Of a stretch of 57,228 nt of DNA, positions 19,952-47,858 are shown one piece after another. How positions within the stretch are numbered: position 1 is the stretch's first letter; every line of letters begins with the position of its first letter. The stretch is from the sequence record MK524177.1; one strand, written 5' to 3'. This DNA comes from Escherichia phage PHB10. Below the pieces are notes generated by a model. The model did not search any database. It saw only the letters and a list, made by a program, of their open reading frames with translations, and was not told the origin of the DNA. The position numbers and the translations under genes were made by a program.

Positions 19952-20151
19952 ATCCGGTTTCGCCAGCGGCTATCCGCGCGCGCTGGCGTATTTGAGGTTG
20001 GCAGGAATGCACTTACAGTCCAGGTCACGTAATCCGGATTAAGGCTGCGCTCTACTCGCACGCCGCGCGCTTTGTAACGCTTAACCAGTTCTTCGGCCTG
20101 TTCGGTGCTGCAGTCGGTATGGTGAAACCAAGAATATTTCATGCCCTTCAC
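19942..20151 (-). CDS. hypothetical nin-region protein
   Basis: 69 aa ORF overlapping the rusA start. Confidence 0.35.
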
Positions 20152-20750
20152 CCCGCAAAGCCAAGCAGCTGCGCAGCGACATTTTCGGCCTCATCACGAC
20201 TGCGGAATGAACGGGACAGGACCCAGCGCCAGAGGACATCGAGCGCAGCTTTATAGAGTTGCTGGAACTCGAGCTCGTCCATGTTGGCGAATGAGATGCT
20301 ACGAGGGTGCTTTTTGAGGGTGCCGTCAGGTAGCTGAATAGCATCAAAGTGCCCTGCCTCGACGATCACCCAGGAGCGGTAAGCATCGAAGGATTTGCAC
20401 AGGCTAATGCCATTCGTGACGCGCCGGTAAGCAACCTGCTCAAGATACTGCTCAGCAGCATCGATCAGCGCGCCCTCATTCCCGCCATACGAAGCCAGGA
20501 ACCTGGCGTAGCCGGTGATCAGCTTCCGCTCGTTGCTAGATATAGCCCCGCCGGTTGGTTCCCAGTATTCAAAACCGAGATTGAGAAGCGCGAAAAAGCG
20601 CCGATGAAACGCCGGGTTACGTACCCGCCTGAACTCGGCAACAAGAACATCGCCGAACCGGGTTTTGGATTGCAGAATATCGCTGGTCTCGGGCGTAGCC
20701 GGGATCAGTATTCCTGAGTGGTGTTTGATAAGTTGTAATTCTAGCGCCAT
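20148..20750 (-). CDS. nin-region phage protein (DUF1367-like), function unknown
   Basis: 200 aa ORF; family assignment from memory only. Confidence 0.45.
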   Translation of the reverse strand: MALELQLIKHHSGILIPATPETSDILQSKTRFGDVLVAEFRRVRNPAFHRRFFALLNLGFEYWEPTGGAISSNERKLITGYARFLASYGGNEGALIDAAEQYLEQVAYRRVTNGISLCKSFDAYRSWVIVEAGHFDAIQLPDGTLKKHPRSISFANMDELEFQQLYKAALDVLWRWVLSRSFRSRDEAENVAAQLLGFAG

Positions 20751-20789
20751 GGTTCTCTCCGTGGCGCATCAGGTATAGGGTGTTCAGGC

Positions 20790-21032
20790 CTATGAAAGAA
20801 TAATATCAGACGGTGGTGTAACTCGGTACCCCAGCCGTTTTGCAAATTGCATAAACCCGTTGAGAGTGAAGATTTCTTCCTCTTCGAGTAACGGTCGTAA
20901 TGAAACTATTCCATTTACTCGATAAACCAGATATCTCCCTTCCGCCGGGAAGCTATAGATAACTGCTTTATCGGCCCTTCTGACCACGTCGTACCATTGA
21001 TCATCTGCATTAAAGGCATCTGTACTACACAC
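20790..21032 (-). CDS. hypothetical small protein downstream of the dinI-like gene (candidate antirepressor)
   Basis: 80 aa, GTG start with GGGGG SD; in the same transcription unit as the LexA-controlled dinI-like gene. Confidence 0.4.
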   Translation of the reverse strand: MCSTDAFNADDQWYDVVRRADKAVIYSFPAEGRYLVYRVNGIVSLRPLLEEEEIFTLNGFMQFAKRLGYRVTPPSDIILS

Positions 21033-21138
21033 TATTTCCCCCAGAGCGACTTATCGACGCGATAAACAGTAATCGGGAACAGCCAGGGGAACGCAAACAG
21101 CGATACTCTTTGAAACTGCTCCAGTGAAATTCACGCGA

Positions 21139-21363
21139 TTAATAAAACCACTCGTCCGCGCTTTCCCAGGTCTCCTGCAGGATATGTTCGACCTCTTTCT
21201 TGTCACCTCCGAAAACAGTCAAACCATCATTACTGGCACGTTTAATCGTTAGCTGGCAATCATCGAATTGCTTGCTAAGTCTTTTGAGCAGTTCTGACTC
21301 GAGAGCAGGTAAAGCTCCATCAGGAAGTTTCTTCATACGATCAATGGTTAACTCAATTTTCAT
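21139..21363 (-). CDS. DinI-like protein
   Basis: MKIELTIDRMKKLPDGALPALESELLKRL...ILQETWESADEWFY resembles E. coli DinI; start at 21363 with GGAGGG SD. Confidence 0.8.
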   Translation of the reverse strand: MKIELTIDRMKKLPDGALPALESELLKRLSKQFDDCQLTIKRASNDGLTVFGGDKKEVEHILQETWESADEWFY

Positions 21364-21382
21364 TATTCCCTCCGCAACGAAC

Positions 21383-21402
21383 AACTGTATGTATATACAG
21401 TA
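21383..21402 (-). promoter_or_regulatory. LexA (SOS) box overlapping the dinI-like promoter
   Basis: AACTGTATGTATATACAGTA fits CTGT-N8-ACAG; TTGCAA-N17-TATAAA promoter immediately upstream on the minus strand. Confidence 0.75.
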
Positions 21403-33166: not shown

Positions 33167-33718
33167 TCACATTGCCCCCAACATGGTTGTGACCATCGCC
33201 AGCAGCGGCGCCGTAAGGTCCGGATCGATCCTGAACATTTCGAAAATCCCCTCGCCTAACTCCTTCAGTTTTTCCTTCTTCGGTGCATCGAGCATCAGAG
33301 CTTGCTTCGCCTCACTTACCTCTTTTTCCAGCCGGGCCATTCGGTAAGCAAACGAGTCGTTCTTTACGACACGGTCGCGGTATCGAAGCGGCAATACAGA
33401 CATGATCGCGGGCACCAGCTGTTCGACGTTCTTTCGGTACGATACGGAGTCTTCTTTGTTGTCGAGCCAGCGGAACAGCTTCACGTTCCAGACATCGGCC
33501 TGGCCTGAGAAATCCACGCCATCAAGTTGAAGTTCTTCCGCCGCTTCTTGGATTTGAAGCGCAACAGCTACGCGCCCTTCTGCCGCTGCCCACGCCCGGA
33601 CTGCAGAACAAATATCGCGATGATCAATATCCTGCTCTGCCGATTTGCTTTGATGACACGGGAATATCATTGGATTAGAGCAAGCTCTGCTACTCTGTTG
33701 AAATGAAACAGTTTGCAT
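33167..33718 (-). CDS. hypothetical regulatory protein in the cII position (YdaT-like?)
   Basis: 183 aa ORF between the cro-like gene and O. Confidence 0.35.
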   Translation of the reverse strand: MQTVSFQQSSRACSNPMIFPCHQSKSAEQDIDHRDICSAVRAWAAAEGRVAVALQIQEAAEELQLDGVDFSGQADVWNVKLFRWLDNKEDSVSYRKNVEQLVPAIMSVLPLRYRDRVVKNDSFAYRMARLEKEVSEAKQALMLDAPKKEKLKELGEGIFEMFRIDPDLTAPLLAMVTTMLGAM

Positions 33719-33720
33719 AG

Positions 33721-33948
33721 TTAAGGTTCCTGTTTAGGTAAACCGTCGGTGGGGTTTGGATAGAGATCGGGTCGTAACTCGTGGGGAGTTACTCCGGTCA
33801 TTTTAAAAATGGGAAAGATGTAGTTTGGAGGGACGATCCCATGGTCACGATTCTTCCAATGACTTACGGACATACTCGTAACACCTAGCGCGATGCTGAG
33901 CTTTCTGGCTGAGCCAGCAGCTTTAATTGCTTTATCGAGTGCGGACAT
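33721..33948 (-). CDS. Cro/YdaS-like HTH regulator
   Basis: 75 aa, HTH KLSIALGVTSMSVSHWK, ELRPD motif; divergent from the repressor; AGGAGAAG SD. Confidence 0.7.
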   Translation of the reverse strand: MSALDKAIKAAGSARKLSIALGVTSMSVSHWKNRDHGIVPPNYIFPIFKMTGVTPHELRPDLYPNPTDGLPKQEP

Positions 33949-33976
33949 GTGCTTCTCCTGATTATAGACAGCGCAA

Positions 33977-34042
33977 GTAAACCATAGATTTACATTATAT
34001 GCAAACCATAACTTTATTGCGTGTATAAACCAAGTATTTACA
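33977..34042. promoter_or_regulatory. operator region: three AAACCA-N4-TTTA repeats and divergent promoters
   Basis: Repeats at 33978, 34003, 34027 (24-25 bp spacing); TACAAT -10 hexamer at 34039-34044 placed for a leaderless repressor transcript. Confidence 0.45.
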
Positions 34043-34050
34043 ATGGCATT

Positions 34051-34425
34051 ATGAGAAAAGAAGAACCCAACCTCCTATTGGTGGACCGCCTAACTGAGAT
34101 CACAGATCGTGGCGTTACCAAAGCAGACATGGCACGAATAGCTGGAGTCACCCCTCAGGCCGTAAACGGCTGGTTCAAAAAAGGCGTGATCAGTAAGAAA
34201 TCGGCACTGGCTATAGCCGATGCTGTAGGCATTTCAGTCGCCTGGCTACTTGGTGAGGATGTTGGAGAGAAGGACGGCCTTAAGCCGGACGAGCAGCGCT
34301 TACTAGAACTCTACCGCCAATTGCCAGAAGAAGAGCAGCAGAACATGCTTCGTATCTTTGCGCTTCGCTTGAAGGAGTTGGATGAGCTGTATGAGAAGTA
34401 CATGAAAGGGCGCATAAAAAATTAA
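34051..34425 (+). CDS. prophage repressor (XRE-type HTH, no peptidase domain), probably leaderless
   Basis: HTH TKADMARIAGVTPQAVNGWFKKG plus coiled-coil C-terminus; no SD before ATG 34051 and a -10 hexamer 7 nt upstream. Confidence 0.65.
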   Translation: MRKEEPNLLLVDRLTEITDRGVTKADMARIAGVTPQAVNGWFKKGVISKKSALAIADAVGISVAWLLGEDVGEKDGLKPDEQRLLELYRQLPEEEQQNMLRIFALRLKELDELYEKYMKGRIKN

Positions 34426-34512
34426 TTAAGTGAATTGATGCTACGATTGTTGATGTGACGTTAATGACCCGTTTTCACTTAAGTTATCTAACCATACGTA
34501 CGTGGAAAAAAG

Positions 34513-34833
34513 ATGGACGAAGAAAATAAAGATAATGCTGAAAACCTAGGCGAAAGCGGTATCACAAGAGCGCTTTCAATTCTTGGAGAAGAATTTGGTA
34601 ATTATTTTCTAGAATTGGAATCTAAGCACGGGGAGATGGTTTGTCCTTTATGCAGAGGTACCATGTGGGGTATCCCTCCAAGATTCGACTCTGCCGAACA
34701 CCCTGCTATCGTGACTCTCCCTTTACCTAACTCTGCCGGGCGTGGTATCTGGGCTTATCCTCTCATCTGCTCTGGATGCGGTTTCATTGCAACGTTTTCT
34801 GCATTTGAAGTTTCAAAGAAGATTCGGGGATAA
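34513..34833 (+). CDS. small zinc-ribbon protein (CPLC...CSGC), first gene of repressor-linked module
   Basis: 106 aa, four Cys in two CxxC pairs, acidic N-terminus; AT-rich; 87 nt downstream of the repressor. Confidence 0.5.
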   Translation: MDEENKDNAENLGESGITRALSILGEEFGNYFLELESKHGEMVCPLCRGTMWGIPPRFDSAEHPAIVTLPLPNSAGRGIWAYPLICSGCGFIATFSAFEVSKKIRG

Positions 34834-34839
34834 ATTCTC

Positions 34840-35217
34840 ATGGCAGCCGTGTGCTTAGACTCCAACTCGATAATGAGGCTAACGGTTAGCACTTCAGAGA
34901 TTTTTGAGGCATTGCCGACAATCGAAAATCGCATCGGGGACACGCCTTACACACCCGACGAAGCTACCGTTATGATCATTACAACTAATGTGTCTCGTTC
35001 AGAAAATTGTACTGGTTTGCTGATACTATCTGTAATATTAGTATGTTTAATTGGTGTTATAGTAAATGTATTAGGAGGTAAAGTAATGCACTACATCCCC
35101 TTGTACATCGCACTTGCACCTGTATTTTATTGGGTGCTTAAAATCGCTTACGCATTTTTTGTTGTTAAGTTTCATAAACTTCAAACTAGTTCTTCATTTT
35201 TCAAGCAGGAAGACTAA
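34840..35217 (+). CDS. small membrane protein (soluble N-terminal domain plus two TM helices), second gene of module
   Basis: 125 aa; 6-nt gap after the previous gene; hydrophobic segments LLILSVILVCLIGVIVNVLGG and IPLYIALAPVFYWVLKIAYAFFVV. Confidence 0.5.
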   Translation: MAAVCLDSNSIMRLTVSTSEIFEALPTIENRIGDTPYTPDEATVMIITTNVSRSENCTGLLILSVILVCLIGVIVNVLGGKVMHYIPLYIALAPVFYWVLKIAYAFFVVKFHKLQTSSSFFKQED

Positions 35218-35639
35218 TGCCTAACGATAATCTTAAAAACACAGCTAAAAATGGTCTTCCACTAGTCATAGCAAGCGTGTTGTGTGGATACGCAACGAAC
35301 GCAATTCCTGTTCTCTTCCCTGCAGGTGAAACAAGAGAATGGGCTTATCGCTCGATTCCTTTCTTGTCTATCATTATTTTATTCATTATCAAGACCTTGA
35401 AAGATTTTGGCGGTATGTCTTTTAGTAATCTTGTGTTCACAATCTGCGCGAGTTCAGAAAAAAAACGACTTCTAGCGATGATAAATGACAGCAATCTGAG
35501 CCAAGCGACAAGAGATGATGCTAAAAAGCGGTATGACGAAATTGGCCGCCAAGAACTTGAGCTTGGATCTCGGTTTCTGAAGTATGTTTCACAATGGTCG
35601 GTTATAAATAAATCCCCAACCCCCCCACCTACTGATTAA
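35217..35639 (+). CDS. small membrane protein (two TM helices plus charged C-terminal domain), third gene of module
   Basis: 140 aa; start overlaps the previous stop (TAATG); followed by a terminator. Confidence 0.5.
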   Translation: MPNDNLKNTAKNGLPLVIASVLCGYATNAIPVLFPAGETREWAYRSIPFLSIIILFIIKTLKDFGGMSFSNLVFTICASSEKKRLLAMINDSNLSQATRDDAKKRYDEIGRQELELGSRFLKYVSQWSVINKSPTPPPTD

Positions 35640-35651
35640 CTATTGTCTACA

Positions 35652-35677
35652 ACCCGGCCATCGCGTCGGGTTTTTTA
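35652..35677 (+). terminator. intrinsic terminator ending the repressor-module operon
   Basis: 7-bp stem (35652-58/35665-71) with 6-nt loop followed by T6. Confidence 0.6.
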
Positions 35678-36112
35678 TATCCCAATCAACTCGACACTCC
35701 TCTAAACTCCAGCCCCGTACTCATTATGCCCGAGCTTAGCATCATTTTTTTGCCTGTTATACCTCACCCTTCTTATAAAAATCCCCACATAAACCCCTGC
35801 TTTACAATTTTTGTAATCCTTTGATTGACACAGTTATAAACCAGTGATTTAATCGAGCTTACCAAGACGCACTACGAACCACCAAGGCAGGACGCCCACG
35901 AAGTAGCCGCCGACGGCATACGAATAGTCGGATGAGGTGGAGAGATTAACGCGCATCAGGTGTAAATGTTCCGCTGGCCGGCGATAAGGCAAACGAGGGT
36001 GAGAATGATTGATTTCGCACGCAAACCAGGACGGCAGCAGGCTGTAAAGCTGAACTTCCTCGAAGTGATTCTTCGCCGCTTATGCTATCTGCTGGCGCAA
36101 AAGGGGAATCCA

Positions 36113-36277: not shown

Positions 36278-36418
36278 ACGTAAAAGCCGCGCAAGGCGGC
36301 CCGTACGTCCGGTGCTCCCGACCAAAGTTACACCGGAAAACTACTTAAAAAACCAAAGTTCACCCAATGGGCGCTATCTCTGGCCCGGGGATCTTACATC
36401 CAAAAAAGAGGATCTCAC

Positions 36419-41032: not shown

Positions 41033-41245
41033 ATGTCGCAGGTAATATTTAACGAAGAATGGGTTGTTGGCGCAAGGCTCACAGAAAAAACAGGCCTGAC
41101 CGAACGACAGATTGAGAAGTATCGCCAGGGCTGTTGGGTGGAAGGTGTCCATTTTAAACGGGTTTCTCCTTCCGGAGAAAAAACCTTGCGTGGCACAACC
41201 TGGTACAACTATCCGAGAATTAATCAGTTAATAAGGGATGCGTAA
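41033..41245 (+). CDS. xis: excisionase
   Basis: 70 aa basic protein immediately upstream of and overlapping int. Confidence 0.7.
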
Positions 41246-42485
41246 GATGGCAGCTATGCCTACAGGTGTCGAAATCAGAAACAATAAGATTTGTATCTGG
41301 TTTATGTACCGGGGAAAGCGTTGCCGCGAAATTCTCAAAGGTTGGATTAACACTCCGGCGAACATCAAAAAAGCCGGAAATCTTCGGGCTGTGATCGTTA
41401 GTGAGATCAACCTTGGAGAGTTTGATTACCACCAGCGCTTTCCTTCATCGTCCAGAGCAAAAAAAACCGTAACCACTGTTTCAGTTCAAACCTTTTCAGA
41501 GCTGTGTGAACTGTGGACGAGCATTAAAGAAACCGAAATTAGCGCGAATACCATGCGTAAGACGCGCTCACAACTCGGTACGTTAATGCACATCATTAAC
41601 GGAGATACGCCTGTTTCAACTATACGCCACAGCGACATTCTGAAATACAGGAAGGAGCTGTTGAACGGTGAGACACTTTACCTGGCAAATCCCAGAAGTA
41701 ACAAACAGGGACGCACTGTGCGTACCGTGAACAACTATATATCGCTTCTGTGCTCCCTTCTTCGGTTTGCACACAAATCTGGCTTTATCAGTGGCAAACC
41801 ATTTGAAGGGATCAAGAAACTACACAAAGGGAAAGTAAAACCGGATCCTTTAACGAAGCAGGAGTTTAGTTTGCTTGCGGCATCCGAGCGTGGCCAAAGC
41901 CTCAATATGTGGACGTTCGCAGTTTATACTGGTGTCCGTCATGGAGAGCTTGCAGCTCTTGCCTGGGAAGATATCGACTGGGAAAAAGGTACGGCTCATA
42001 TACAGCGCAACCTTAATGCGCTAGGAATGTTCGTCCCACCAAAAACCGATGCAGGTGATCGAGTTATCACGCTATTAGAGCCGGCACTTGAAGCCTTGAA
42101 AGCACAGCGCAAGCTAACAGCGCTGCAGCCTAAAACCGAAATTGTCTTTAATCATCGCGAGTATGGCGCAGTGGAACATCAAAGCCTGCGATTCGTTTTC
42201 ATACCCCGGATGCGCAAAGGAGAACAGAAAGCCTACTACTCTTTATCGAGCATCGGTGCGAGATTCAACGCAGCTGTAAATCGTGCTGGTATTCGCCGCC
42301 GGAATCCGTACCATACGCGGCATACTTTTGCCTGCTGGCTTTTATCTGCCGGCGCTAACCCGTCTTTCATAGCCAGCCAGATGGGGCATGAAAACGCGCA
42401 AATGGTTTATGAAGTCTACGGTGCGTGGATTGAAGAAATGAATGGCGAACAGGTGCTGATGCTTAACGATAAGCTGGCACGCTGA
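41238..42485 (+). CDS. int: tyrosine integrase (lambda-type with N-terminal arm-binding domain)
   Basis: C-terminal catalytic motifs (R...[28 protein letters not shown]...Y); 415 aa; adjacent to the repeat-flanked att region. Confidence 0.9.
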
Positions 42486-45926: not shown

Positions 45927-47195
45927 TCATCTAACTTTTATTAGGTCTGAATACCTCGTAGTATATCGTGGAGATAACATATCCCGTTTCATCTGCCACT
46001 GCTGCTGTATGCCCTGCCCGGCAAAGTAAAGCGTTCCTTTTCCATCTTTCGCGTTCAAGTGATCGAGCACCTCCATCAACTTATCGCTTCCTGCGCGTGG
46101 AGCGTTCTCATCGAAAAGGTTCAACTGCGCCACCCCTTGGCTGAAAAAATCTCCCAGCATGATTCCAGCCTTTTGATAGCGATAGCCATCCTTCCAGATT
46201 TTGTCCAGGCACTTTACCGCGGCGTTGATTATGTCGCGGGAATCCTGTGTAGGGGTGAGAAGCTTCATGGACGCGCTGTTACCGTAATATGGCTCGTTAA
46301 GCGCAAAGGGAGAGGTTTTCACGAACGCAGAAATAAAGCGGCAGTACTGATGCTCTCCCCGCAACTTTTCTGCGCCTCGGGCCGCATAACTGCAAATGGC
46401 CTGCCTCATTTGTTCGTAATCAGTGACGCGTTCACCGAATGACCTGCTACAGACGATCTCCTGCTTTGCCGGCGCAAATTCCTCCAGCTCGAGACAGGGC
46501 TCGCCGCGCAGCTCCCGGACAGTTCGCTCCAGGACGACATTAAAGTGTTTGCGGATAATCCACGTGCTTTGTTCAGAAAGGTCCAGAGCTGTTTTGATGC
46601 CCATGGCATTCAGCTTCTTACTGATGCGCCTGCCTACGCCCCATACATCTTCTACTGGCACGATGTCGAGCAATCGGCGCTGGCGGTCGATATTGGATAA
46701 ATCAACTACCCCTCCCGTTTGCCGCTGCCATTTCTTCGCGGCGTGGTTGGCCAGCTTGGCCAGTGTCTTTGTCTGGGCAATTCCAATCCCGACAGTCAGG
46801 TGCGTCCGCTTCAGAACGGTAGCGCGGATTTCTTTGCCGAACTCAGTAAGATCCCGGCAATTGCGAACACCTGTTAGGTCACAAAATGCTTCATCGATAC
46901 TGTAAATTTCTACGCGAGGGCTCAACTCCTCCAGTGTGGTCATTACTCGATTCGACATGTCTGCGTACAGCTCGTAGTTACTGCTGAAGCAAACAACCCC
47001 AGCGCGCCGAAATAAGTCCTTTTGCTTGAAGAAAGGCTCTCCCATTGTAATTCCAGCCGCCTTGGCCTCGGCGCTGCGCGCGATTACGCAGCCGTCATTG
47101 TTCGAAAGAACAACCACTGGCCGCCCTTTCAAATCGGGACGAAACACCGTCTCGCATGATGCGTAGAACGAATTCACGTCGCAGAGCGCAAACAT
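45927..47195 (-). CDS. umuC: translesion DNA polymerase V catalytic subunit UmuC
   Basis: Y-family polymerase N-terminus [15 protein letters not shown]; 422 aa; directly downstream of umuD. Confidence 0.9.
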
Positions 47196-47197
47196 AC

Positions 47198-47617
47198 TCA
47201 GCTCGCCGATTTGACGATGAAAGTAACAACGCCGAAAACGTCCAGCGTATCTTCGCTGCCTACAACAATCGGACTGTAGGCGCTATTCATTGGGATGAGT
47301 TGGACATTTGGACGCAACTGCAAACGCTTAACAGTGAATTCCCCTTCAACCGCGGCGATGACAATGTCACCGTGCTCAGCCGTGCGCGAACTATCCACCA
47401 CCAGCAGATCACCGTCGCTTATCCCGGCTTCGATCATTGAATCCCCCGCGGCTTTGACGAAATATGTAGAGCTCGGGTGAGCGACAAGTAACTCATTGAG
47501 ATCGATACGCTGTTCAACGTAATCAGCTGCGGGGCTTGGGAAACCACACTGTACTAAGTCACTGAAAAGCGGAAGAGCGATAATATCTCGCAGTTCTGTT
47601 GGCCTGATGAATTCCAT
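47198..47617 (-). CDS. umuD: UmuD (LexA-like S24 peptidase, polymerase V accessory subunit)
   Basis: 139 aa from MEFIRP; Ser-Lys dyad context (AAGDSM ... VKRL). Confidence 0.9.
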
Positions 47618-47632
47618 TGCACACACCTCAAA

Positions 47633-47652
47633 TACTGTTTTTATATACAGTA
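47633..47652 (-). promoter_or_regulatory. LexA (SOS) box upstream of umuDC
   Basis: TACTGTTTTTATATACAGTA fits CTGT-N8-ACAG, 16 nt upstream of the umuD start. Confidence 0.8.
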
Positions 47653-47858
47653 GTTTTATTTGTAAGTGTCCGCAAGATACAGGCCCTATCGTCACTGCTT
47701 AAAGCTTCGCCGTTTCGTTTCTAAGTTTATCTCTCGTTTCGAATTATCTCTTTTGTAAATTTTTCAATAATGGCGCAGATGTAAGCAGATTTGAGGGAGA
47801 CAAAGCCCGTTAAATGCCAGAACGGGCTGCGACTGAAAGCTAAGTCTTCATGATTCCG

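Follow-up and report, generated by a model that had tools for sequence, protein, structure and literature searches.

A probable lambda-style immunity switch with phased operators and a most likely leaderless repressor in a lambdoid Gifsy/Rac-like prophage

Introduction

In prophage CP-933P of Escherichia coli O157:H7, the repressor PaaR2 faces a ydaS–ydaT–O gene order; repeated operators have been footprinted there by both regulators, and an analogue of P_L/O_L is present (PMC8630535, PMC9986795). The paaR2 transcript is leaderless: its +1 was mapped to the start codon by 5' RACE, and the N-terminus of the protein was sequenced as MQKKE (PMC8630535). A divergent repressor/ydaS region that has been likened to lambda cI/cro is also found in the Rac prophage of E. 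coli K-12 (RacR–YdaS–YdaT), with nine short RacR sites and three racR promoters (PMC9638921, PMC5700373), the strongest of which yields a leaderless transcript (PMC9638921).

By sequence, the closest group to the repressor discussed here is that of GfoR and GfhR – short, non-cleavable repressors of the Gifsy prophages. The repressors of Gifsy relatives are not cleaved upon induction, and the promoter of GfhR is located between two in-frame AUGs, the short form of the protein being made in lysogens; the same study describes neither operators nor a leaderless transcript for the Gifsy repressors (PMC3121763).

Here, we analyse the immunity region of Escherichia phage PHB10 (record MK524177.1), referring to the whole 57,228-nucleotide stretch as the window. 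The original prediction had proposed an immunity switch with three operator-like repeats and a probably leaderless, autoregulated repressor. It had said nothing of a second operator set with its promoter (O_L/P_L), of the dyad symmetry of the sites or of the fact that the repressor has no autocleavage domain. The features are collected in Table 1.

Table 1. Features of the immunity region and of the probable induction module (window coordinates)
Feature	Position	Strand	Description
YdaT/CII-like gene	33167..33718	-	183 aa; Pfam YdaT_toxin, phrog_163
YdaS/Cro-like gene	33721..33959 (including SD)	-	75 aa, ATG at 33948; Pfam YdaS_toxin, phrog_35
P_R-like promoter	33976..34005	-	-35 TTTGCA 34005-34000, 18-nt spacer, TGg + -10 TTTACT 33984-33976
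O_R1 (O1)	33977..33993	no strand	GTAAACCATAGATTTAC; predicted operator, 17-bp pseudo-palindrome
O_R2 (O2)	34001..34017	no strand	GCAAACCATAACTTTAT; predicted operator
O_R3 (O3)	34025..34041	no strand	ATAAACCAAGTATTTAC; predicted operator
P_RM-like maintenance promoter	34017..34044	+	-35 TTGCGT 34017-34022, 16-nt spacer, -10 TACAAT 34039-34044
Repressor gene	34051..34425	+	124 aa; N-terminal 5-helix HTH, linker, C-terminal helical hairpin
Cargo ORFs + terminator	34513..35680	+	three ORFs, 106, 125 and 140 aa, co-oriented with the repressor
O_L3	35789..35805	no strand	ATAAACCCCTGCTTTAC; predicted operator
O_L2	35813..35829	no strand	GTAATCCTTTGATTGAC; predicted, degenerate; overlaps P_L -35
O_L1	35836..35852	no strand	ATAAACCAGTGATTTAA; predicted; within P_L spacer and -10
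P_L-like promoter	35825..35853	+	TTGACA 35825-35830, 17 nt, TGa + TTTAAT 35848-35853
Probable induction module	20148..21400	-	LexA box CTGTATGTATATACAG 21385-21400, then genes in Gifsy-like order
dinI-like gene	21363-21139	-	DinI family; after LexA box
Antirepressor candidate	21032-20790	-	80-aa GTG-start ORF, phrog_340
DUF1367 gene	20750-20148	-	last in LexA-boxed operon

Gene content of the immunity region

The YdaS/Cro-like gene and the HTH repressor gene diverge from an intergenic region of exactly 102 bp (33949-34050). The original prediction had located this region correctly, its length having been given as 100 bp – which happens to be the distance between the divergent repressor and cro genes of lambda, the corresponding region of CP-933P being 97 bp long. 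The YdaS/Cro-like protein matches PF15943 (YdaS_toxin, E=2e-13) and shares 27% identity with YdaS of CP-933P; its gene is preceded by an SD, AGGAG (33959-33955), 6 nt before the ATG. The YdaT/CII-like protein matches PF06254 (YdaT_toxin, E=2e-21), the CII-like activators of phrog_163 (E=5e-48) and the YdaT structure 8bt1 in the PDB (E=0.002). Also flanking the repeats, on the cro side, are O and P replication genes, placed downstream as in lambda, although proteins of the YdaS and YdaT families occupy what in lambda are the Cro and CII positions. Judging by this gene content, the region is an immunity region, as had been proposed.

Like lambda, the locus carries a cargo operon behind the repressor gene, closed by an intrinsic terminator (35651-35672, followed by a T-run). 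Neither PADLOC nor Pfam assigned a family to any of the three cargo ORFs, whereas the cargo of CP-933P is a ParE toxin–antitoxin pair; relatives carry different cargo in this slot. A megablast search against phage genomes found no phage with a matching immunity region, only a 170-bp match to mEp237, and a search of Rfam at E<=1 matched the region to no family, apart from a sub-threshold isrB-like hit.

The repressor protein

The only Pfam matches of the repressor are to HTH families (HTH_3). No S24 peptidase domain was found by Pfam, and its structure model (mean pLDDT 86) contains no beta-rich peptidase fold: in place of the S24/LexA-like autocleavage domain of lambda CI there is a helical hairpin of ~45 residues (helices 79-89 and 93-122). 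The modelled N-terminal domain superposes on the 434 repressor and P22 c2 at 1.6-2.0 Å. A PDB sequence search with the repressor was uninformative, returning spurious poly-ubiquitin matches on the short stretch DGLKPDEQRL.

Sequence comparison places the repressor in the GfoR/GfhR group of Gifsy: over 114 aa, it shares 73% identity (E=3e-63) with the GfoR-type repressor of locus L018, and the link to GfoR itself is made through the N-terminus of the L018 protein, MKEKTHQIN, which is that encoded by the gfoR cloning primer le144. PaaR2 is similar in size (~123 aa), likewise has no peptidase domain and shares the C-terminal motif LL..F/Y..(L/F)PE(E/D)EQ, but its homology is remote (19% identity over 81 aa, E=3e-4 in a two-sequence BLASTP). 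RacR is also distant (27% in a tblastn match to a Rac record).

Three phased operators at O_R

The intergenic region contains, as predicted, three copies of AAACCA-N4-TTTA: AAACCATAGATTTA (33979-33992), AAACCATAACTTTA (34003-34016) and AAACCAAGTATTTA (34027-34040). The spacing of 24-25 bp originally given holds for its lower value only, both gaps between the repeat starts being 24 bp. Four exact matches occur in the window against 0.15 expected from shuffles, and none of 100 shuffles reached four; the fourth match, at 35838, is part of a second operator cluster discussed below. The repeat is better read not as a simple direct repeat but as a 17-bp pseudo-palindrome, RTAAACC-N3-rrTTTAY. O1, which reads GTAAA-N7-TTTAC, is perfectly symmetric in its outer 5+5 bp, and O2 is the poorest match to the consensus. 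Counted with 34051 – the predicted transcription start – as +1, the site centres lie at -66 (O1), -42 (O2) and -18 (O3), compared with -66, -42 and -19 for OR1, OR2 and OR3 of lambda. The operator sequence itself is unrelated to that of lambda and also differs from the CP-933P consensus, which is of the GTTTAGTAA type; moreover, the sites reported for CP-933P are four inverted repeats and three pseudo-symmetric ones, compared with the three operators found here. For these comparisons, the CP-933P region was rebuilt from primer sequences.

The repeats were also found to be phylogenetically constrained. Among 12 loci of the same specificity, drawn from E. coli, Leclercia, Pseudescherichia, Citrobacter, Kluyvera and Phytobacter, the operator cores, the TTG, the TACAAT and the ATG are invariant, whereas free variation is seen in the spacers and in the 6 nt preceding the ATG – a pattern that supports reading the repeats as phylogenetic footprints. 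Wider comparison distinguished four specificity types, with half-sites TAAACCA (the type found here), TAAAGCA (mEp237/GfhR-like), TAAGCCT and TAAACAT (GfoR-type). Relatives with different DNA-binding domains have different repeat sequences at the same positions: all four types keep the site centres at about -18, -42/-44 and -65/-67, the region of the recognition helix differs between them, and the C-terminal half of the repressor is near-identical throughout. This anatomy, its conservation and the covariation of the sites with the DNA-binding domain are direct observations on the sequences.

Could the repeats be a chance similarity in a promoter region, with no operator function? The region is AT-rich, short two-copy repeats often arise by chance, and the 16-mer pattern with two mismatches allowed is only modestly enriched in the window (11 matches against ~4 expected). 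But the exact pattern exceeds expectation as given above, its phasing is a strict 24 bp, the cores do not change although the spacers do, site sequence and DNA-binding domain vary together, and a second phased triplet sits at P_L in 13/13 same-specificity loci, at variable distances. We therefore regard the chance reading, whose probability is negligible, as effectively refuted.

A subtler alternative accepts that the repeats are real protein sites but denies that they are lambda-like dimer operators: they might be direct repeats bound by tandem monomers, or serve mainly the YdaS/Cro-like protein or YdaT. The logic would then be unlike that of lambda, with no activation from O2 and no cooperativity. 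We find this very unlikely. It is true that the three copies of AAACCA...TTTA in the intergenic region all point the same way; in the E. coli relatives, however, the better half-site of O_R2 is on the opposite side, so that the orientation of the site is flipped with its position unchanged, as would follow if a dimer binds a pseudo-dyad. Direct as well as inverted repeats have been noted in CP-933P (PMC8630535) and the RacR sites have been modelled as nine monomer sites (PMC9638921), yet the consensus of 50 distinct O_R and O_L sites is symmetric at positions 2-5 and 13-16 (TAAA/TTTA), near-perfect palindromes such as O_L3 of locus L024 occur, and the site centres fall within 1 bp of those of lambda. 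The 933W repressor is reported to bind adjacent sites without cooperativity; the proteins on which the modelled N-terminal domain superposes, the 434 and P22 repressors, are on the other hand dimeric DNA binders. As for YdaT, the CP-933P protein recognizes another motif, located at the ydaS–ydaT junction.

Within the repressor gene, a further operator-like site (34162-34177) suggested a possible third operator locus, but this was rejected: it is accounted for by the codons for V-N-G-W-F-K, and it is also present in type-C loci, the operators of which differ.

Promoters of the divergent region

The -35 element of the maintenance promoter is weak (3/6 matches to the consensus), but its TTG, as well as the TACAAT, is invariant or nearly so across the 12 same-specificity loci. 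O_R3 shares 3 bp with the TACAAT, in line with the overlap between the third repeat and the -10 that had been proposed; the maintenance transcript is predicted to start at 34051, the A of the ATG. In the opposite direction, the P_R-like promoter overlaps O_R2 and O_R1 and has a predicted start near 33969, the exact hexamers assigned to it being putative. Equivalents at the same place (TTGACA or TTGACT, 17 nt, then TTTACT/TTTAAT/CTTAAT) are present in 20/25 related loci. The proposed -10 elements of P_R and P_L, TTTACT and TTTAAT, have T in place of the usual A at position 2 and set these early promoters apart from those of lambda.

A consensus promoter scan (at least 4/6 matches per hexamer and, in the -10, an A as its second base) called no promoter in 33600-34600, and P_RM, P_R and P_L were all missed. 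This silence is not decisive, because neither the P_RM -35, being weak, nor TTTACT or TTTAAT as a -10 can pass such rules. The minus strand also carries two perfect copies of TATAAT (33999-33994 and 33966-33961), which were tried as a cro-side -10 and discarded: neither is conserved in any relative and, from the latter, transcription would begin inside the SD.

A leaderless start for the repressor

The TACAAT at 34039-34044 is followed by 6 nt (GGCATT) and then by the ATG, the A of which is the 7th base downstream – consistent with the 7-nt distance originally stated. The absence of an SD was likewise borne out: GGAG, GAGG and AGGA are absent from -20 to -4 before the repressor ATG, and no SD motif was found in 25/25 related loci, which span the four operator specificities. 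A -10-like hexamer precedes the conserved ATG in all 25 (by 6 nt in 24 and by 7 nt in one), and 9/25 have no alternative in-frame upstream start. In the type-D loci and L010, the TAG of the hexamer TAGAAT itself closes the repressor frame, three codons upstream. The first 18 nt after the ATG are A-rich, with 61% A in the window and 59% across loci as against 28% in the rest of the gene (lambda cI: 67% versus 28%), and the 5' AUG is unpaired in nearly all loci.

The repressor mRNA thus most likely starts at its own AUG, because the hexamer stands 6-7 nt before the ATG in every locus, no SD is present and nine loci offer no other start, and because the same geometry is found in lambda cI (TAGATT-taacgt-ATG, also with no SD and with A-rich first codons) and in the start-mapped paaR2 (GATAAT-taccac-ATG). 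The analogy with lambda cI drawn in the original prediction is therefore supported by comparison across loci and by the paaR2 precedent. By analogy with RacR, which has additional upstream promoters (PMC9638921), and with GfhR, whose upstream promoter is active on induction (PMC3121763), leadered repressor transcripts may coexist with the leaderless one.

Public annotation often favours a different start, the in-frame GTG at 34021, which would give a protein of 134 aa translated from a leadered transcript coming from further upstream and leave TACAAT without a role as its promoter. PGAP chose this start in 2/3 E. coli relatives and an Enterobacter protein of 100% identity is given a length of 134 aa, but the annotated N-termini of the family are inconsistent, with lengths from 123 to 197 aa. 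A GTG or ATG does stand at -30 in 9/13 same-specificity loci; however, the upstream start is missing in L009, L010, L022 and L023, and the frame is closed in L010 and all type-D loci, as described above. Like the ATG, GTG 34021 has no SD. Substitutions in the 30-nt 'extension' are all non-synonymous and lie outside the operator and -10 positions, and its 'peptide', KPxIY, is a translated operator, present in three copies in the longer annotated forms. Even for GfhR, for which an upstream promoter can give an N-terminally extended form upon induction, lysogens make the short form (PMC3121763). Overall, we consider the GTG start unlikely.

An improbable variant combines the two starts into two isoforms set by the promoter used, with upstream transcripts adding a 10-residue N-terminal extension via GTG 34021. 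The extension would be specified by O3 and the -10 hexamer, and the upstream promoter would serve establishment or induction, by analogy with GfhR* in Gifsy-3; DNA binding or antirepressor sensitivity could then differ between the isoforms.

A second operator set at P_L

As in lambda, the cargo operon is followed by an operator triplet over P_L, spaced 24+23 here and 24+20 in lambda. Its distance is 1.74-1.80 kb when measured from the repressor ATG and ~1.4 kb from the end of the repressor gene, and it is found in 13/13 same-specificity loci, in which the distances vary. The promoter itself (TTGACA-17-TTTAAT) is conserved in 12/13 of these loci, the remaining one having TTGGCA. The predicted P_L drives the ydaE-like, recE, recT and int side, the position of recE and recT being shared with Rac.

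A candidate induction module

The order of LexA box, dinI-like gene, 80-aa GTG-start ORF and DUF1367 gene matches that of the Gifsy dinI–antirepressor–irsA operon (described in PMC3121763), in which DUF1367 corresponds to irsA. In phage records, the 80-aa ORF and the repressor family are found together and, on the basis of position and co-occurrence, the ORF is a candidate antirepressor. In contrast to lambda, induction would probably not proceed via autocleavage of the repressor but, by analogy with the Gifsy prophages, through a small LexA-controlled antirepressor.

A model of the switch

Taken together, we think it highly probable that the locus is a lambda-style, two-promoter bistable O_R switch of a lambdoid Gifsy/Rac-like prophage, with a leaderless repressor, an O_L/P_L counterpart and, probably, induction by an antirepressor – a model that rests on comparative sequence analysis. 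A dimer of the 124-aa HTH repressor would bind the three 17-bp pseudo-palindromic operators 24 bp apart. Occupancy of O1 and O2 would block P_R, which overlaps both, and the dimer at O2 (-42), adjoining the weak P_RM -35, could stimulate the repressor's own promoter. At high repressor levels, O3 over the TACAAT would be filled and P_RM shut off. This layout can be called autoregulatory, as had been suggested, because the position of O3 over the -10 and that of O2 at -42 match those of lambda. The YdaS/Cro-like protein would be expected to bind these sites too, in the reverse order of preference, and the mRNA from which the repressor is made would be leaderless, its 5' end A-rich and unstructured. 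O_L would control P_L, with looping possible between O_L and O_R, the centres of which are about 1.8 kb apart, and the antirepressor from the LexA-controlled dinI operon, ~13 kb away, would induce.

Implications

The comparison sets the start of the repressor gene, as best predicted, at 34051, with a product of 124 rather than 134 aa, and defines the immunity specificity of the prophage as the operator RTAAACC-N3-rrTTTAY at both O_R and O_L. Gene callers mis-start Gifsy-type repressor genes in many records, with annotated lengths ranging from 123 to 197 aa, and the results can help to annotate such genes and to predict superinfection immunity as well as SOS-linked induction. The locus is real, well conserved and ordinary, and it leaves the general understanding of lambda-type switches unchanged. 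What it illustrates is that this family of short, non-cleavable Gifsy-type repressors, widespread in prophages of Enterobacter, Klebsiella, Salmonella, Citrobacter and E. coli, preserves, in at least four DNA-binding specificities, the lambda O_R geometry and, most likely, its leaderless start with almost base-pair precision.

Anatomy of the operator region

The 102-bp intergenic region at 33949–34050, which separates the repressor gene from the divergent gene of a YdaS/Cro-family protein, contains the three AAACCA-N4-TTTA repeats described in the original prediction (table); of the proposed spacing of 24–25 bp, the lower figure holds, as both start-to-start distances measure 24 bp. The motif occurs four times in the 57-kb window; dinucleotide-preserving shuffles predict 0.15 occurrences, and none of 100 gave four. 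Each repeat reads better as a 17-bp pseudo-palindrome – the predicted operators O1 to O3. Fifty distinct sites from 12 loci of the same specificity give the consensus RTAAACCA-nnn-rATTTAC, with dyad symmetry at positions 2–5 and 13–16; ATAAACCCATGGTTTAC, a natural site, is almost fully palindromic. O2 of the E. coli relatives has its better half-site on the opposite side without any shift in position, as would be expected if a symmetric dimer reads the site.

Features of the immunity region and the probable SOS module
Feature	Position	Strand	Sequence or remark
dinI module	20148–21400	−	LexA box 21385–21400 (CTGTATGTATATACAG), DinI-family gene, 80-aa GTG-start ORF, DUF1367 gene
YdaS/Cro-family ORF, 75 aa	start 33948	−	AGGAG upstream at 33959–33955
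Repeat 1	33979–33992		AAACCATAGATTTA
Repeat 2	34003–34016		AAACCATAACTTTA
Repeat 3	34027–34040		AAACCAAGTATTTA
O1	33977–33993		GTAAACCATAGATTTAC; outer 5+5 bp perfectly symmetric
O2	34001–34017		GCAAACCATAACTTTAT
O3	34025–34041		ATAAACCAAGTATTTAC
Repressor ORF	ATG 34051; in-frame GTG 34021	+	
Three cargo ORFs, repressor-to-O_L interval	34513–35680	+	terminator after them
Terminator	35651–35672		after three small ORFs downstream of repressor
O_L site	35789–35805		ATAAACCCCTGCTTTAC
O_L site, degenerate	35813–35829		GTAATCCTTTGATTGAC
O_L site	35836–35852		ATAAACCAGTGATTTAA
P_L	TTGACA 35825–35830	+	TTGACA, 17 nt, TGaTTTAAT; interleaved with O_L sites

The same module is found in E. coli genomes at ~87% identity, and a search restricted to one genome per species added 19 further loci with 97–66% protein identity. 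Locus L009 (JAEYMU010000022.1) has this Enterobacteriaceae immunity region, with intact operators and a repressor of 86% identity, on a 4-kb contig that is assigned to a Bacillota metagenome-assembled genome and is probably mis-binned. An alignment of 12 same-specificity intergenic regions shows the operator cores, a TTG at 34017–34019, the TACAAT hexamer and the ATG to be invariant or nearly so, with the inter-operator spacers and the six bases ahead of the ATG freely variable.

The 25 related loci divide into four specificity types by half-site: TAAACCA (type A, that of the window), TAAAGCA (type B, that of mEp237), TAAGCCT (type C, loci L004, L012 and L016) and TAAACAT (type D, that of GfoR). 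Across types, the recognition-helix region of the repressor differs and its C-terminal half is almost identical; measured from the repressor ATG, the site centres hold to about −18, −42 to −44 and −65 to −67, and the intergenic length to 97–104 bp. Sites that change with the DNA-binding domain yet hold their position bear the signature of operators. Their geometry is also that of lambda, whose OR3, OR2 and OR1 are centred at −19, −42 and −66, compared with −18, −42 and −66 in the window.

An operator-like sequence with one mismatch also lies inside the repressor gene (34162–34177; minus-strand reading TGAACCAGCCGTTTAC). It is formed by the V-N-G-W-F-K codons of the recognition helix and is retained by every same-specificity locus; type-C loci, whose operators differ, have it too, so that it probably just reflects the coding sequence.

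The predicted cro-side promoter

A consensus promoter scan called nothing on the cro side. Conservation points to TTTGCA (34005–34000), 18 nt and TGgTTTACT (33984–33976) on the minus strand as P_R, with TTGACT-17-TGcTTTACT, TTGACA-17-TTTAAT or TTGACA-17-CTTAAT at the equivalent place in other types (20 of the 25 loci overall). The predicted −35 and −10 would lie at the edges of O2 and O1, respectively, an arrangement repeated at P_L. A T at position 2 is unusual for such hexamers, which makes their exact choice the least certain point of this anatomy. Two perfect minus-strand TATAATs (33994–33999, in the O1–O2 spacer, and 33961–33966) were rejected as the P_R −10, being absent from all relatives; they could add promoter activity in this prophage alone.

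A probable leaderless repressor start

As originally proposed, no Shine–Dalgarno (SD) motif precedes the repressor ATG, and a TACAAT hexamer does (34039–34044), separated from it by six bases (GGCATT). Both features extend to the whole family: each of the 25 loci has a −10-like hexamer (TACAAT, TAGAAT, TACACT or TATTCT) whose end is 6 nt from the conserved ATG (7 nt in one locus), and none has an SD motif upstream of the ATG. Sequence and comparison show a conserved start codon without SD, 7 nt from the predicted −10. In nine of the 25 loci there is no in-frame upstream start codon, and in type D and locus L010 the TAG within TAGAAT closes the frame three codons upstream, leaving the ATG as the sole possible start in those loci. 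In the window, the 10-codon 'extension' from the GTG is a translation of O3 and the −10, and its substitutions among relatives are all non-synonymous, sparing operator positions. Database N-termini for the family are inconsistent (123 to 197 aa), as is usual for gene callers that lack a ribosome-binding site for guidance. A makes up 59% on average of the 18 nt that follow the ATG, against 28% in the rest of the gene (67% against 28% in lambda cI), and almost every predicted fold leaves the 5′ AUG unpaired.

The same layout is seen in lambda cI (TAGATT-taacgt-ATG) and in paaR2 of CP-933P (GATAAT-taccac-ATG), for which 5′ RACE placed +1 on the start codon and N-terminal sequencing gave MQKKE (PMC8630535). 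In CP-933P, a 97-bp region is footprinted by both PaaR2 and YdaS, P_RM is activated at low PaaR2 levels, and P_L/O_L has an analogue (PMC8630535). The strongest racR promoter likewise yields a leaderless transcript (PMC9638921), and in GfhR of Gifsy-3 the promoter lies between two in-frame AUGs, the lysogenic form being the short protein (PMC3121763). Type-B loci agree with the latter layout, having an in-frame ATG 84 nt upstream; from an annotation note on mEp237, we infer that GfhR is type B.

The second operator cluster and its surroundings

Gene content marks this as an immunity region of the lambdoid, Rac/Gifsy kind: the YdaS/Cro-family gene is followed on the minus strand by genes for a YdaT/CII-like protein and the O and P replication proteins, and beyond the terminator lie a ydaE-like gene, recE, recT and an integrase gene. 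An inverted repeat, AAACAG-N18-CTGTTT, spans the ydaS-stop/ydaT-start junction (33706–33735) and could be a site of the CII-like protein; at the same junction of CP-933P, near P_RE, YdaT binds its own, different inverted repeat. Antisense in the ydaE-like gene to recE interval, there is a sub-threshold match to isrB, a Salmonella sRNA family (36281–36365, minus strand; 26.7 bits against a gathering score of 35, E=0.06).

The fourth AAACCA-N4-TTTA match pointed to a second cluster, at 35789–35853, with sites spaced 24 and 23 bp, which sequence identifies as the O_L/P_L counterpart; the annotated O_L sites of lambda, spaced 24 and 20 bp, likewise lie beyond the cI-rexAB operon. Triplet and promoter are present in 13 of 13 same-specificity loci, 468 to 2490 bp from the repressor ATG, a distance that varies because the intervening cargo differs. 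Two phased operator triplets are seen to overlap three predicted promoters. Relatives have HicAB, a DUF6932 pair, a 467-aa protein, PaaA2-ParE2 or RexAB between the repressor and O_L, which makes this a hypervariable slot for cargo that is expressed with the repressor. The three ORFs of the window have no family in Pfam or PADLOC; that of 106 aa has a weak zinc-ribbon match, and those of 125 and 140 aa are apparently hydrophobic.

Downstream of P_L, a leader of ~125 nt is conserved in 11 related loci (window 35879–35940 and 35972–35983, plus strand). Its consensus fold has an outer stem, CCACC/GGTGG, around hairpins GGC..GCC and CCGAC..GTCGG, then one more hairpin, with compensatory double changes in 8 of 17 predicted pairs. 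It matches no Rfam family at E≤1 and may act in cis as an antitermination or processing RNA; there is no evident N-like gene.

A non-cleavable repressor and a probable SOS module

The repressor, 100% identical to an Enterobacter bugandensis protein, matches HTH_3 and gives a weaker hit to the phage CI repressor HTH family; a family search of the protein found no S24 peptidase domain. Its AlphaFold model (mean pLDDT 86) consists of a five-helix N-terminal domain, which superposes on the DNA-binding domains of 434 repressor and P22 c2 at 1.6–2.0 Å, a linker and a C-terminal helical hairpin (residues 79–122) – by sequence and comparison, a non-cleavable architecture. The relationship to PaaR2 is remote (19% identity, E=3e-4). 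Sequence places GfoR/GfhR as the close family: the window protein shares 73% identity over 114 residues with the repressor of locus L018, whose N-terminus, MKEKTHQIN, is the exact product of the gfoR cloning primer.

GfoR/GfhR repressors are not cleaved on induction but are taken off DNA by small antirepressors, which come from a LexA-controlled dinI-antirepressor-irsA operon, the antirepressor starting with GUG (PMC3121763). The LexA-boxed dinI operon recognisable in the window has the gene order of this Gifsy SOS operon. Its 80-aa ORF belongs to phrog_340, a family without assigned function, with homologues in eight phage records, seven of which also have a close repressor homologue.

Beyond the integrase (41238–42485), UmuD-like (S24 peptidase) and UmuC-like (IMS family) genes (45927–47695, minus strand) have their own LexA box (CTGTTTTTATATACAG, 47635–47650), and further large minus-strand ORFs, one of 1149 aa, occupy 49.8–57.1 kb. 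These ORFs may belong to a second prophage.

Implications for the switch

By analogy with lambda, CP-933P, Rac and Gifsy, repressor dimers would occupy O1 and O2, repressing P_R and stimulating P_RM from −42; O3 would provide negative autoregulation, and the YdaS-like protein would bind the same sites in reverse order. O_L–O_R looping may also take part. On an SOS response, an antirepressor directed against the conserved C-terminal domain would induce the prophage.

The original finding is real, and comparative evidence supports its reading as an operator switch with a probably leaderless repressor. The switch is a new specificity of an already known kind, and its predicted leaderless repressor has three experimentally mapped precedents. 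What is added is modest: a corrected start for the annotated repressor, and the extension of −10-N6-AUG and lambda operator geometry to the whole family, across four specificities.
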